A stretch of 63,760 nt of DNA, filler included, from Lenisia limosa (taxonomy: Eukaryota; Protista; Breviatea): assembly GCA_001655205.1 (NCBI GenBank). It is 16 parts of 16 records of this genome, joined end to end, with 100 filler letters (N's around TTAATTAATTAA, not from the genome) between each part and the next. Parts side by side here need not be neighbours in the genome. Positions count along the whole stretch, not along the records: positions 1 to 1,190 come from LPNZ01008598.1; positions 1,291 to 5,275 come from LPNZ01011698.1; positions 5,376 to 9,920 come from LPNZ01010620.1; positions 10,021 to 12,154 come from LPNZ01001205.1; positions 12,255 to 13,484 come from LPNZ01006439.1; positions 13,585 to 16,222 come from LPNZ01009736.1; positions 16,323 to 18,722 come from LPNZ01003855.1; positions 18,823 to 24,626 come from LPNZ01006460.1; 8 more parts are not named here. One strand, given 5' to 3'. Position 1 is the stretch's first letter, and each line of letters opens with the position of its first letter. A program made the translations under genes and the position numbers. Positions 368 through 53,294 of the stretch are shown here, piece by piece. A model generated the notes under the pieces. That model was not told where the DNA came from, searched no databases, and saw only the letters and a list, made by a program, of their open reading frames with translations.

Positions 368-915
368 TAGTCTTTTAAAAAAGACAGAGAAATTTTCTCT
401 TGGTGTTCGACAGATACTTGAAAAGAAAGAGGTATTACCTAATTATGGTCTTAAATTTTGTTCAGGGATTGTTCCGGAAGAATATGATGGGGAAAAGGGT
501 TAACTTTGCTTGTCGGTTTGTTTGTGAGTATTTTTGTCTTATCGCCAGCTCTGTAATTTCACCTGATGCTTCACTTGAGACAAATGAGATTGGGCTGCCT
601 TTAGTGTTTGCCAAAACACTTACTTTTCCAGAGATTGTCACTCAGGTATTATTTTGATATAGTGATGCTGATAAACGTTGAGAAAGTAAGAAACCTGATA
701 CTAAATGGTTGTGATAATCACCCTGGAGCCAATTCAATTGAAATGTTGTGTTTTTTTTTTTCTAATGGTTGTAATGGAACATTTCATAATTTGAAAAGGT
801 TCAGTTATGAACAACGACTTGCAATGGCCAACACTCTTGTTTGAGATAAGCTGTATTTATCAAATTAGGCAACGTTCTCTGGTAGTCAAGGAGAGTGTCC
901 AACAGTTATAAGAAG
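368..915 (+). CDS. RPA1: RNA polymerase I largest subunit, internal fragment with tiny introns
   Basis: Exons 368-431, 466-515, 549-645, 671-747, 772-838 and 869-915 give [106 protein letters not shown]. The EKKEGLFR-x2-MMGKRVN and TNEIG motifs are Pol I type. Introns are 34, 33, 25, 24 and 30 nt. Confidence 0.88.
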
Positions 916-1061
916 GTATTATCAGCTTTTTTTTTGTATTATTATTTTTGGTGGAAGATTAACTTCCTGTGTTCAACACCCCCCTCAAAACCATCCAAAA
1001 TTATACGAAGGCTGTGCACATACATACAGTATACACCTAACATATGATGTATCGGTTCGTG

Positions 1062-1150
1062 TTAAAAACCGCGAACATGATTAAAACCGCGAAAAAGCCA
1101 CAAATCGACATAAATCGCTTCAATAACCCTCTTTTTAGTGTGAAATTCGG
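1062..1150 (+). mobile_element. End of the TTAAAACCGCGAACATGA inverted-repeat element
   Basis: About 90 bp closely matching the reverse complement of 48070-48158. Confidence 0.65.
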
Positions 1151-1190
1151 CAGTTTTGAGTACTAGACTATCAATAACATCAAAACAAAG

Positions 1191-1290
1191 NNNNNNNNNN
1201 NNNNNNNNNNNNNNNNNNNNNNNNNNNNNNNNNNTTAATTAATTAANNNNNNNNNNNNNNNNNNNNNNNNNNNNNNNNNNNNNNNNNNNN
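1191..1290. other. Artificial contig linker (first of 15)
   Basis: 44 N + TTAATTAATTAA + 44 N. The others start at 5276, 9921, 12155, 13485, 16223, 18723, 24627, 31106, 32344, 44966, 46858, 55014, 60724 and 62604. Confidence 0.97.
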
Positions 1291-49794: not shown

Positions 49795-50370
49795 TAAGAT
49801 TTCAGGAAATCTTCTGTGTAAAGGCAAAAATTGTAATAGACAATTATATTGAAACACTTCGCTTAGGTTAGATTAAAACTGTTCATCACGAATTTAAATA
49901 TCATTTTTTATTCTTTGAACCAATCATTTATTAAAGTAAAATATCATTTGATAATATCCCAAGCACACCGTGCAGCCATTGTGCTTCCAGTCGACTTGGA
50001 TGGTACCTCCGACTTTGTAGTGGCCGAGCAATAGGTCAGATGTCGTGTTCATGAAAGGATCTCAAGTTGCCAGGCAATTTGGAGAGAGTAGAGAACAGGG
50101 CATGCATCCGAAATTGCACAAACTGGCGGACACTTCCCCTCAACCACGTTCAACTTTCCTTGATCAAGGATCAGTCCATCGGGCGACATAGCAATCTGCT
50201 CGAGACGGTCCCCACTCGCAATGGATGCAGTGACAAGCCCACATCGGATGAACTAAAAAGGTCAAAACAACAATTGGTAACATTTAAATATGTGAAATTG
50301 CTTTCGTCAAAAAAAGAATAATCGTCATTGAAAATTGTTATAACAATCGCCATAAGCATACTCTTGATTT

Positions 50371-51231
50371 TTGAGAGAACGCAGGCTTCACGAACATCTC
50401 GATTGCAGTGAAGAGGGCATTCGGCTCATTGTTGTTACCATACTTCAGGATTGTCTCCTTGTCCTATTTCGAGCTCGTCGTCGGCTTTGGTGCCTTGGTG
50501 ATTGCCTTGATCTTCAACATCTATCCGGCGGGCCATGCTTGTTGAAGTCCCCTAAAATCTTTGATTCCGGCGTTTGGGAGCATGCCGAGCCAACACCACC
50601 CACTCAATCGCTTTCTCCTTTTCATCAAGATCTTTCTGAAGCAGTGAGCAGCTTAGCAACGTCCATCATTTCTCTCCGCAACACAGTCATGTTCCGAATG
50701 AAGAAGCTCAATACGATGATGTTTGCCAGCATCGACAACGACGCATGTATTCCAACTGCATTTTTTGGGAGTGGAGTCGGCTCGGATACACAGGAAACCT
50801 ACTGGTGCAAGATGACGGAGAACGCTTATGGTATTGAACTCATGAAGAAGATCAAGGACTTGCCTCATATTCCTAAAAAGCCTCCCCTCTTCATCATCAG
50901 GGTCGATGACGGTGCTCTTCGAGGTGCTCAGATCAAGTCGCCTTCTGGAAAACTTCTTTCGTCTATTGATGTGACCAATAAGGGTCTCTCACTGTCACTG
51001 CCCGTCAAGGATAAGATGTTGAACTCGCTTCTTGAGGTTGGTGTTACGCCCCCTTCCAAATCGACACTGCTGGAGGTTCAGGCAGAGTACTGCAAAAAAT
51101 TCGCCAGAAGTAACGTGGAAGCTTTGTTTGCGGACTGGGGTGAGACATTACTACATCTTAAGGTGATCACAGACGAAGACCTCAAAGCTGTGGTGGATGC
51201 AGTGATGAAGATCGGCTTTGGTTCCTGTTGA
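50371..51231 (+). CDS. 286-aa uninterrupted ORF of unknown function
   Basis: Longest open frame in the window, with no introns and no recognisable motif. Upstream 49957-50270 looks like a decayed 5' extension. Confidence 0.55.
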   Translation: MRERRLHEHLDCSEEGIRLIVVTILQDCLLVLFRARRRLWCLGDCLDLQHLSGGPCLLKSPKIFDSGVWEHAEPTPPTQSLSPFHQDLSEAVSSLATSIISLRNTVMFRMKKLNTMMFASIDNDACIPTAFFGSGVGSDTQETYWCKMTENAYGIELMKKIKDLPHIPKKPPLFIIRVDDGALRGAQIKSPSGKLLSSIDVTNKGLSLSLPVKDKMLNSLLEVGVTPPSKSTLLEVQAEYCKKFARSNVEALFADWGETLLHLKVITDEDLKAVVDAVMKIGFGSC

Positions 51232-52360
51232 TGTTAAAATGACAAAAGTGAGATGTGTCAACCGTGAACTGTTTCAACAGCTTGAGGCGCAATATGTGAA
51301 ACCAAAAAAAAGTATTGGAATTCAATGACAAGCACAAAGGTGAATTTAACTCATGATAAGGAGATTATGATCAATGTCAAGAAATAAAAAGCATTGTGCT
51401 CAATATATCAATATATAATTAAATGGGAAGTGCGAGTGTGTGTGATTTATGATGGGTAAGTGAGAAAAAGTTAAATACAATAGATATTGAATCAGCATAT
51501 ACCTTTATAACAATAAATCAATCGTTATAATCACTGAGAAGAACCCATAAAAGAGAGAGGAATAAGAAGAGCGGGAAGGGGAAAGAAGGCAAAGAAAATG
51601 AATTGGAAGATACCCTACCATTCATTTCAAAGTTCCTGCGGCTTTTAACAAAATGAACCTAAACAATAAAATTTTGGTTAAAAATCGCACGACTTCTGCA
51701 AATTCACGGTTTCAATTTTCGCCTTCGGCGCGTTCAGGATGTTATTTATGTTGGCTTTAGTTTCCTTTAAGAAACTTTATTTTTTTGCCGCAAAGTTTGG
51801 GAGTTGAAGAACCTAAGCCTGCTCAAACCATGTTTCGAAGTTTTAACTGACTGACTTCTCAAGCTGCACGCTCATCCTTCTCCCCTTCCCCAACCCCTAT
51901 ACTAAAAACACTGAGCACATACATACATAAAGCAAAGACAAAAAACCACAAATAGGGGAGTTCGTGCTGCTTCCAGGTCGTAAAGGTTATTTTTTTGTTT
52001 GAGTGAAAGATCGCTGGGATCCCACTGATATTTGGAAAACTTCCGCTTTTAGTACCAGTGTCTAGTATCACATAAATATTGCAATAATTAAATATTTGGA
52101 CGCGGGATTCTATCAGGAACTTCCGCTCGCGAGTTGATGAGTTTCATTGGTTCACCGTTAGGTTATGTGATTTGGATTTTGAAAGTGGTGGAAAATACAA
52201 AAAATTTCATAATTGTGCTGAGTAGAAACCCTTTTAATGGTATATTAAGTGACACATGCCAACTCACTTATAAATGTAGCCTCCCCGGGATCAATTTATA
52301 AAGGTAGTGACTATTTTTTTTACTTTTAGTATTCAAAAAAACAGTTGACAGATTGAAATA

Positions 52361-53294
52361 ATGAGAGAAGATTTATTTTATGCAATATCCGGAGCCTGTG
52401 CTGGAATATCTGAACACTGTGTCATGTTTCCAATTGACACAATGAGGGTTTTTTTTTACGTTGATTGTTGACAAGAATGCAGCTTAGTGGAGGATTTAAA
52501 AGATGCATTAACAGCAAAAATTTATTCTCTGGGATTTCTTCTGTTGCAATTGGAGCTGGACCTGCGCATGCACTTTACTTTTTAATTTATGAATCTGTCT
52601 TCAGAAAGTTACCTCATCGAAATTCCAAAATACAAACGTCTTTCAACAGGTTTGCTGAACTGATTAATAGTTCTATCGCAGCTATAGTTTCTACTTGTGT
52701 TAGTGATGCATTTATGAACCCTTGGGATGTTGTGAAACAGGTTAGTGTCTAATTTTCAGTTTAGAGAATGCAAATAAAAACAAACACTTCCCTCTTTGAG
52801 ACAGGTTATTCAATGTTAAAAAATGAAGGAATAAGGTTTGTTTTTTTTCATGTTAAAAGAGCTTTCTTCATCTCCTATCCTACTACTCTGTTCATGAATA
52901 TACCATTTGTAGGAATTAACTTTGGAGTCTATATGTCTTTAAAAACTGTTTTGTGTGACAAGGATTCTTTTAACATTAGAGTTTTTTGATTCCGTAATTA
53001 GCATCACCTTTTTGCGGGATGTATCAGTGGAGGAATTGCAGGAGCGCTTACAACACCATTTGACGTGGTGAAGACCTTTTTACAGCTTCAACCAAAATTG
53101 TATTTTGCTAATATTAACTTTTTAAAAGATTTAAGAGCCAGAATTGCTTCACCTGTATGAAAACTTTGGTGTTGTTGGAAGGTAGTGGAATTCTTTGGAG
53201 AGGGCTGGTTCCAAGAACTCTTTTCTTTGCACCAGCAGCAAGTATATCTTGGGGAGTGTATGAACTGCTCAAGCATATACTGGGTGCAAATTAG
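52361..53294 (+). CDS. MRS3: Mitochondrial iron carrier (mitoferrin, Mrs3/Mrs4-like), complete, 263 aa, six 21-29-nt introns
   Basis: Exons 52361-52447, 52471-52649, 52671-52740, 52765-52835, 52860-52980, 53002-53099 and 53129-53294 total 792 nt. Motifs: GISEHCVMFPIDT..RMQ, GAGPAHALYF, DAFMNPWDVVKQRMQ, SYPTTLFMNIPF, ALTTPFDVVKT, WRGLVPR..ISWGVYE. Confidence 0.92.

Follow-up and report, generated by a model that had tools for sequence, protein, structure and literature searches.

Introns excised at TG 3' splice sites in intact genes of the breviate Lenisia limosa

Do some introns of the breviate Lenisia limosa, an anaerobic amoeba-like microbe, end in TG and not in AG, a terminal dinucleotide that is among the least variable signals of eukaryotic genes? 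The question is raised by a window of 63,760 nucleotides (16 scaffolds of this genome joined end to end), in which the initial annotation proposed five GT-TG introns in unrelated genes, on the ground that the expected proteins are obtained only with TG ends. All five stretches are present as written, start with GT and end in CTG or TTG, and they are spread over four scaffolds.

Two proteins that EukProt lists under Lenisia limosa (Breviatea), both assembled from transcripts, P0006 (RPA1) and P0001 (mitoferrin), were aligned to the window with splicing, allowing any intron-end dinucleotides and accepting exact matches only. A total of 370 residues of the two proteins are identical to exons of the window. 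The alignments cross 11 junctions, all with a GT donor placement: eight are GT-AG, in introns of 21–34 nt, and three are GT-TG (646–670, 745–771 and 52448–52470). No AG placement reproduces the proteins at any of these three. For 646–670 and 52448–52470 only one placement starts with GT, and its end is TG; the remaining one is GG..CT or GG..TT. For the second RPA1 intron 745–771 is a single GT..TG placement, with the protein reading SIE before and INGTF after the junction. The three TG introns are absent from P0001 and P0006 and thus, as read at the protein level, were removed from the mRNA. In the assembled transcripts two introns of RPA1 and one of mitoferrin are really excised at TG and not at AG, and they are non-canonical U2-like introns in that they lack the terminal AG. 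GT-TG junctions account for 3/11 of the total (95% CI 6–61%), a share that is overstated because the genes were selected for having TG.

The donors of the TG introns (GTATTA, GTTGTG, GTTTTT) resemble those of the AG introns. A single isoform was assembled for each of RPA1 and mitoferrin, and only the TG form was seen; the AG forms of the verified sites are frameshifted, truncated or lacking conserved residues. The shortest verified intron is 21 nt long, and internal AGs that would yield introns of 17 and 19 nt are passed over. Use of a downstream AG or retention of the intron had been named in advance as the outcomes that would count against TG splicing; at all three sites the proteins carry the TG form.

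Table 1. Genes and introns considered in the window.
Feature	Position	Strand	Basis
RPA1 (RNA polymerase I largest subunit) fragment	366–916	+	six exons, exactly P0006 residues 110–243
RPA1 GT-AG introns	432–465, 516–548, 839–868	+	P0006 spliced alignment
25-nt GT..CTG RPA1 intron, verified	646–670	+	P0006 junction, DNA run X1
27-nt GT..TTG RPA1 intron, verified	745–771	+	P0006 junction, DNA run X1
Cyclic-nucleotide phosphodiesterase (PDE) catalytic domain	6667–9711	+	open model, six GT-AG introns of 168–464 nt before the TG candidate
77-nt GT..TTG PDE candidate intron	9067–9143	+	best of 3 models
27-nt GT..TTG candidate intron, uncharacterised contig-9 gene with predicted signal peptide (ATG 24805, by eye)	24966–24992	+	candidate, unverified
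Mitoferrin-like mitochondrial carrier (PF00153)	52361–53294	+	P0001 matched over all 236 residues; start codon 52361
Mitoferrin GT-AG introns	52650–52670, 52741–52764, 52836–52859, 52981–53001, 53100–53128	+	P0001
23-nt GT..TTG mitoferrin intron, verified at protein level	52448–52470	+	MR/TRMQ junction

The first RPA1 TG intron has a TGAT motif with its A at 665 (−6) and a further TTGAT at −14, and it skips an internal TAG at 662 that would give a 17-nt intron and a frameshift. The second has CTAAT with its A at 765 (−7) and an AG-free interior. Its donor had been placed at 748; the transcript protein moves it to 745, the two GTs lying 3 nt apart. A DNA run bears out the T at both acceptors. 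DNA run X1 covers 31–1092 as one contig at a depth of 43, with no other letter and no gap, and it holds no second RPA1 copy at a likeness of at least 88%; because there is a single contig with no other letter, the RPA1 TG sites are not assembly errors. RNA run X2 contains 0.06 of the words of scaffold 13, a share that carries no evidential weight, and yielded no contigs over 1–1190, the RPA1 scaffold.

A homologue scan of 3/64 parts of a metagenome collection gave 80 RPA1-family loci at 30–50% identity, none of them a close relative; the 24 that cover the region were used as homologues only. The form spliced at TG in both introns fits these better than the alternatives: for the 646 intron, use of the downstream AG is worse in 24/24 comparisons, as is use of the upstream AG or retention (24/24), and for the second intron retention is worse against 22 of the 24 and downstream AG against 21. 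Judged by the length of the homologues, donor 748 does better than donor 745 of the transcript in 19/24 comparisons, so both donors may be used.

The mitoferrin TG intron has TTGAT with its A at 52464 (−7), and the next AG, 5 nt downstream, would shift the frame. The transcript protein holds just two residues 5' of this intron; these residues, MR, are impossible to obtain from intron retention. The homologues P0002–P0004 keep the same MxPxDxxKTRMQ register.

The PDE stretch 9067–9143 is a probable GT-TG intron, as judged from the gene model. Its TTG acceptor ranks top of three models (244.3 versus 239.9 and 237.8 bits), and the splice is compatible with the conserved K-x-A-D motif (K-L-A-D). 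The site carries CTTAT with its A at 9138 (−6). The following exon can be read for only 7 nt before the sequence runs into an N gap (9151–9323), within which one exon of the model mostly lies. A model that included a micro-exon of 11 nt was rejected because it did not keep the frame. The stretch shares a 16-nt core with a repeat family that forms the 3' ends of long introns; a scan of metagenome contigs for a repeat motif found none. No transcript protein of this PDE itself was found among the best 150 of 1844 matches (top identity 68%).

The contig-9 candidate does not force a TG end. For this gene there are 16 paths with an open reading frame that use AG throughout, so that the claim of a protein obtained only with TG stands for the two RPA1 introns and mitoferrin, where no AG placement exists, and falls here. 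Base composition favours TG (22% GC in 24966–24992, 44% in the next 45 nt); by a crude GC score the top two paths use a TG at 25002 and the following ones 24992, and no single model was picked. The nearest AG to the candidate is more than 35 nt away. Neither a homologue nor a transcript of the exon was found (protein search: two candidates, none passing; Atlas: none). Reassignment of a stop codon was considered for contig 9 and rejected, since the verified genes are read with the standard code and the lengths of two TG introns are not divisible by three.

A branch-like TRAY motif with its A at −6 or −7 occurs in 3/3 verified TG introns and 0/8 AG introns (Fisher p 0.006, with the position window chosen after the data had been seen); the background frequency of this arrangement is 86/2027 (4.2%) of plus-strand YTG sites. 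The branch-like motif reported near the TG ends is thus present in all three verified introns, and the PDE candidate has its CTTAT at −6; the contig-9 candidate has no such motif at −6/−7. In 646–670 the TTGAT at −14 is a better match than the motif at −6, which counts against a branch point at −6/−7. A search with Rfam gave no match at all in the window, and no snRNA gene among them.

We favour the reading, with a probability of roughly 0.58, that these are U2 introns in which the spacing to the branch point fixes the 3' end and second-step fidelity is relaxed, as in yeast without Prp18. The TG introns would most likely be removed by the major (U2) spliceosome. Judging by the motifs of the three introns, the A of TRAY at −6/−7 may be the branch point, and the intron end would be set 6–7 nt past this adenosine, with U tolerated for A at −2. 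This spacing leaves no space for a pyrimidine tract, and docking of the 3' splice site would then be positional. The final intron G pairs with the first intron G in spliceosome structures. This final G would still be needed, with a loose check at −2 that probably came about through loss or erosion of the second-step fidelity factors Prp18/Slu7, or through changes in Prp8/Prp22. AGs giving introns shorter than about 20 nt are skipped, so that a minimum length also restricts the choice. We hold more tentatively, at somewhat less than even odds, that this is a natural YWG spliceosome in which TG is the routine, sole and efficient acceptor of 5–25% of short introns genome-wide, with a branch ruler of 6–7 nt and Prp18/Slu7-type proofreading lost or eroded. 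The relaxed 3' splice-site reading proposed by the initial annotation gains from intact genes spliced at TG; of its five introns, one had its donor misplaced by 3 nt and one is not forced.

An ordinary spliceosome might give the same products if, as in human TG-AG tandems, U2AF35 bound a downstream AG for step I and the nearer TG were chosen in step II. Counted from the verified TG ends, the next AGs are at +12, +27 and +5 nt, and the human cases described keep to a limit of 28 nt (PMC2374985), but a further AG at no more than this distance is also present for 7/8 AG introns, so that such proximity is expected by chance and is uninformative. Furthermore, the AG forms frameshift or lose conserved residues, which makes TG the productive site, and the unverified contig-9 candidate lacks an AG within reach; we consider this explanation unlikely. 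Nor is it likely that no special machinery is involved and that very short AT-rich introns are simply measured by length from the donor, with AG-to-TG mutations tolerated at reduced efficiency and drifting to fixation in a few percent. The 23–27 nt of the verified TG introns agree with this, as do the short AT-rich introns with TG or CG acceptors in Micromonas (PMC3879977). The 77-nt PDE candidate is not tiny, however, and the branch-like motif stands at a fixed −6/−7 in the TG introns only; moreover, the tiny introns of myxozoans and dicyemids are given with AG ends only (PMC13644364), although annotation pipelines may force AG.

Artefact, be it misassembly, transcripts from an AG allele or from another copy of the gene, template switching by reverse transcriptase, or pseudogenes, is very improbable and is largely refuted for RPA1. 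It draws some support from the PDE site, 7 nt from an N gap, from the DNA-read check, which was confined to the RPA1 sites, and from the EukProt transcripts, which possibly come from another strain than the window. Against it stand the uniform, single-copy X1 contig and the exact match of P0006 and P0001. Junction placements can be shifted by no more than 1 nt, and by 0 at 745–771, leaving no direct repeat to support template switching. Pseudogene decay, already doubted by the initial annotation, is out for the verified sites: the genes are intact, the essential RPA1 included, and are spliced at TG, and unspliced inserts of 23 and 25 nt would frameshift them. The U12 consensus is an RTATCCTT donor and a CCTTAAC-like branch site, and neither is found in the TG introns. 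There is an extremely small chance that they form a separate class, either U12-type, whose 3' ends are described as loosely specified (PMC2374985), or one family of mobile introners that has a TG end of its own, as do IE-B/IE-D of Micromonas (PMC3879977). A repeat family does make long-intron 3' ends in the window, but those of its copies whose end is readable mostly have AG there. The five TG stretches have only T-runs in common (pairwise local scores 8–20), and no further copy of any of the four short ones occurs within the window.

The initial annotation knew of no description of such introns. This stands for breviates: our literature search, with the species' original description and its supplements outside its scope, found TG acceptors reported neither for Lenisia nor for any other breviate; the word 'intron' does not occur in a breviate preprint of 2026, a pan-eukaryote minor-intron survey none of 'Lenisia', 'breviate' or 'GT-TG', and a 2026 review none of 'GT-TG'. 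It does not stand more widely, as there are published TG acceptors in human tandem sites (PMC2374985) and in the BOC1 and IE-B/IE-D introns of Micromonas (PMC3879977). What is seen here is that two adjacent introns of the essential RPA1 need TG, whereas the known cases are minor partners of AG (human) or belong to an odd region or a repeat family (Micromonas). If genome-wide, the habit would offer a natural test of how the −2 base is read in the second step and of the ruler role proposed for Prp18; if the YWG reading is true, this would be the highest TG-acceptor rate that we could find among major introns that are not repeats, and the host is a cultured relative of animals and fungi. In this deep-branching obazoan lineage gene finders restricted to GT-AG will break genes, and they may hide a TG habit in other short-intron genomes.

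In human U2 introns, TG 3' splice sites are described for 36 genes, never as the sole acceptor and always beside an alternative AG no more than 28 nt away (Szafranski et al. 2007, PMC2374985). The likeness lies in the GT donor, the YTG acceptor, the U2 type and the exact use in transcripts; in Lenisia, by contrast, the conserved protein is obtained with a TG end only, the introns are 23–27 nt long with no pyrimidine tract after the branch motif, and the apparent rate is far higher. Saccharomyces cerevisiae without Prp18 uses UUG, other BG and branch-proximal sites, and Prp18/Slu7 are dispensable at a short branch-to-3' splice site distance (Roy et al. 2023, PMC10711555). Shared features are UUG among the best-used non-AG sites, the short distance and the retained final G. 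The yeast sites are a mutant phenotype, in minor unproductive forms that also include AUG, ACG and UGG, whereas here TG is productive in wild-type genes; the predicted branch A at −6/−7 (5–6 nt by the convention of PMC10711555) is nearer than the 7-nt minimum of the prp18 null, which counts against the favoured mechanism.

The 15–16-nt introns of Stentor coeruleus have a putative branch A at position 10 of 15, equal to −6 and so like the predicted one of Lenisia, and Slu7 and Prp18 are reported as not detected (Nuadthaisong et al. 2022, PMC9505925). Their length is fixed and they end mostly in AG; introns here run from 21 to more than 450 nt, with a TG subset. That Stentor, with the same geometry and no Prp18 match described (PMC9505925), nevertheless keeps mostly AG ends counts against the mechanism. 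The closest natural parallel is the BOC1 region of Micromonas, a single low-GC chromosome region with 34 small AT-rich introns with TG/CG acceptors, mostly validated by ESTs and said to have no discernible branch motif; the GT-TG introners IE-B/IE-D of the same alga are repeats of 100–6494 nt (Verhelst et al. 2013, PMC3879977). Both organisms have introns that are short, rich in AT and terminated by TG, but the host here is an obazoan and not a green alga, and the introns are unrelated, single-copy and on separate scaffolds, show only TG and carry a branch-like A at −6/−7 (compare PMC3879977).

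The 16 scaffolds, joined with blocks of N between them, contain all five stretches that the initial annotation had named as introns ending in TG, and a direct check of the letters showed that each starts with GT and ends in CTG or TTG. Searches with unspliced exons of RPA1, the RNA polymerase I largest subunit, and of a mitoferrin-like carrier each returned one near-identical protein (P0006 and P0001, respectively). Each was assembled from transcripts by Trinity and has a EukProt accession under the name of the breviate Lenisia limosa; together they provide an RNA-derived check independent of any gene finder. 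Under a protein-to-DNA alignment requiring exact residues and permitting any intron ends, RPA1 residues 110–243 fell into six exons and 236 mitoferrin residues into seven. Eight of the 11 junctions are GT-AG introns of 21–34 nt, and at the other three an AG placement is impossible. We put the probability that these three are real non-canonical GT-TG introns at about 95%. For the second RPA1 intron the annotated TG end at 771 stood, while the annotated donor, 748, lies 3 nt downstream of the one in the transcript, 745; since 748 fits homologue length better in 19/24 comparisons, both donors may be in use. The mitoferrin case is thinner than RPA1, as P0001 starts two residues 5′ of the TG junction. 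Retention of this intron cannot yield those two residues, and mitoferrin homologues keep the same register.

In the DNA sequencing run X1 the stretch 31–1092 is covered by one contig (depth 43, 0 other letters, 0 gaps); at 88% likeness this run yielded no further copy. The T at 669 and the T at 770 are therefore real, and RPA1 is without an AG-bearing twin in X1. The RNA sequencing run X2 gave no contig over this RPA1 stretch. Reverse-transcriptase template switching was rejected because the junctions slide only 0–1 nt, leaving no direct repeat to support it. Against 24 RPA1-family homologues (out of 80 loci), use of the next AG, use of the previous AG or retention of either RPA1 intron was worse than the transcript form in 21–24 of the 24, and the next AG in mitoferrin, at +5, causes a frameshift. 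TG is thus the productive acceptor in both genes, the DNA-read check covering the two RPA1 Ts.

TG-intron donors look like AG-intron donors, unlike the U12 consensus used in the comparison. Mutual sequence comparison ruled out that the TG introns are copies of one another. The A of a TRAY motif stands at −6 or −7, a position window picked after looking at the data (n = 3), in 3/3 verified TG introns versus 0/8 AG introns and at 4.2% of 2027 YTG sites by chance; the nearest YTNAY adenosines of the AG introns lie at −8 to −24, except one at −4. AGs that would make 17- and 19-nt introns are skipped. The verified GT-AG intron 52741–52764 ends at a TAG although a CAG 5 nt earlier would have closed it at 19 nt, which points to a minimum intron length near 20–21 nt.

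We lean towards a mechanism in which the 3′ end would be docked by position, close to the putative branch point, with a loose check on the −2 base. Excerpts of PMC10711555 describe yeast lacking Prp18 as using UUG and branch-proximal sites, and Prp18/Slu7 as dispensable at short distances. Branch geometry alone would be insufficient, since in Stentor, by the excerpted text of PMC9505925, the branch A sits at −6 and neither Prp18 nor Slu7 was detected, yet most introns keep AG. TG ends could instead reflect AG-primed tandem use, and an AG does lie 5–27 nt downstream in 3/3 verified TG introns, but one lies within 28 nt in 7/8 AG introns too. Plain tolerance of TG in tiny introns is the other rival to positional docking.

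The cyclic-nucleotide phosphodiesterase (PDE) gene can be modelled with its catalytic domain open, interrupted by six GT-AG introns (168–464 nt) and then by the candidate 9067–9143. Homologues have K-x-A-D at this site, where TTG/CTG GCC G yields K-L-A-D; the TG model is the best of three by about 4 bits, with only 7 exon bases visible before an N gap. The intron has a 16-nt core in common with a repeat family forming long-intron 3′ ends in the window, its TTG occupying the position where the copies carry AG. No PDE transcript protein was present among the best 150 of 1844 matches. We regard this as a probable TG intron. For 24966–24992, in an uncharacterised contig-9 gene, protein searches returned no homologue and no transcript. 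The claim that this gene reads through only with a TG end failed, as 16 open all-AG paths exist by model enumeration; base composition favours TG (22% GC, then 44%), and the balance tips just barely to a TG intron. A possible second TG-ending intron of this gene spans 25089–25118, where some models stay open with an end at 25109, 25113 or 25118.

The repeat, of ~100–120 nt, consists of a T-run, a TTTCATAAATTTTCC-like core, a C-run and then mostly AG. nhmmer gave 10 hits to it in the window, and many long introns, spread over different scaffolds, have it as their 3′ end. It may have been left behind by an introner, or be a mobile element supplying acceptors. Its terminal C-runs coincide with several assembly gaps. 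Intron length is bimodal (21–34 nt in RPA1 and mitoferrin versus 168–464 nt in PDE); long introns contain small inverted-repeat elements, and short inverted-repeat elements resembling MITEs, in several families, are mostly intronic. RPA1 ends after a donor at 917, and the rest of the scaffold (917–1190) runs out in a repeat of very high copy number, where summed contig depth reaches about 26,700 versus 43; related copies are in scaffold 13 near 47680 and 48130. Beside mitoferrin, scaffold 13 (46958–55013) holds intron-bearing genes with frameshifts and several intronless ORFs of 100–290 aa, which had no Pfam matches. A short stretch there resembles divergent large-subunit rRNA by eye; Rfam gave no match to it at gathering score.

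Features located in the window (slash, splice junction)
Feature	Position	Strand	Details
RPA1 TG intron	646–670		GT..CTG; IVTQ/INVEK; spliced alignment to P0006
RPA1 TG intron	745–771		GT..TTG; SIE/INGTF; single possible placement; spliced alignment to P0006
Mitoferrin TG intron	52448–52470		GT..TTG; MR/TRMQ; spliced alignment to P0001
Short introns	within 432–53128		
Long introns (PDE)	within 6754–9007		
~100–120-nt repeat	5845–5965	+	nhmmer
~100–120-nt repeat	20673–20772	-	nhmmer
~100–120-nt repeat	35108–35193	+	nhmmer
~100–120-nt repeat	41623–41662	-	nhmmer
~100–120-nt repeat	43696–43770	+	nhmmer
~100–120-nt repeat	58234–58323	-	nhmmer; four more copies besides those with coordinates
MITE-like elements	7612–7709, 20963–21054, 35309–35419, 37986–38074, 22384–22469, 62210–62541		
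CPSF160-like gene (CPSF_A)	45790–46857	-	Pfam; introns by eye end in AG
DEAD-box helicase	30400–31050	+	Pfam; introns by eye end in AG
TPR protein	59056–60081	-	Pfam

The TG share is 3/11 junctions (95% interval 6–61%) in genes chosen because TG had been seen there, and 4/18 modelled introns with the PDE candidate added, all three genes being TG-selected. Introns of DDX49 and CPSF1, read by eye, end in AG. With 3–5 TG ends among the roughly 100–150 introns estimated by eye for the window, the floor, likewise by eye, is a few percent, far above the 36 human genes. TG intron ends are already known as a kind, since human and Micromonas examples are published: excerpts of PMC3879977 list, for Micromonas, 31 GT-TG introners as well as 34 introns in BOC1 that end in TG or CG, most of them validated by ESTs. 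No report of obligatory TG ends like those found here turned up in the literature searched, which did not include the species' original paper and supplements. Human TG acceptors, in the excerpted text of PMC2374985, occur in 36 genes and are exclusively alternatives to an AG, whereas TG appears obligatory in the verified Lenisia limosa introns. The variant that found no precedent in that literature is an obazoan's: unrelated single-copy introns in its housekeeping genes, with apparently obligatory TG ends, at a rate of percent.
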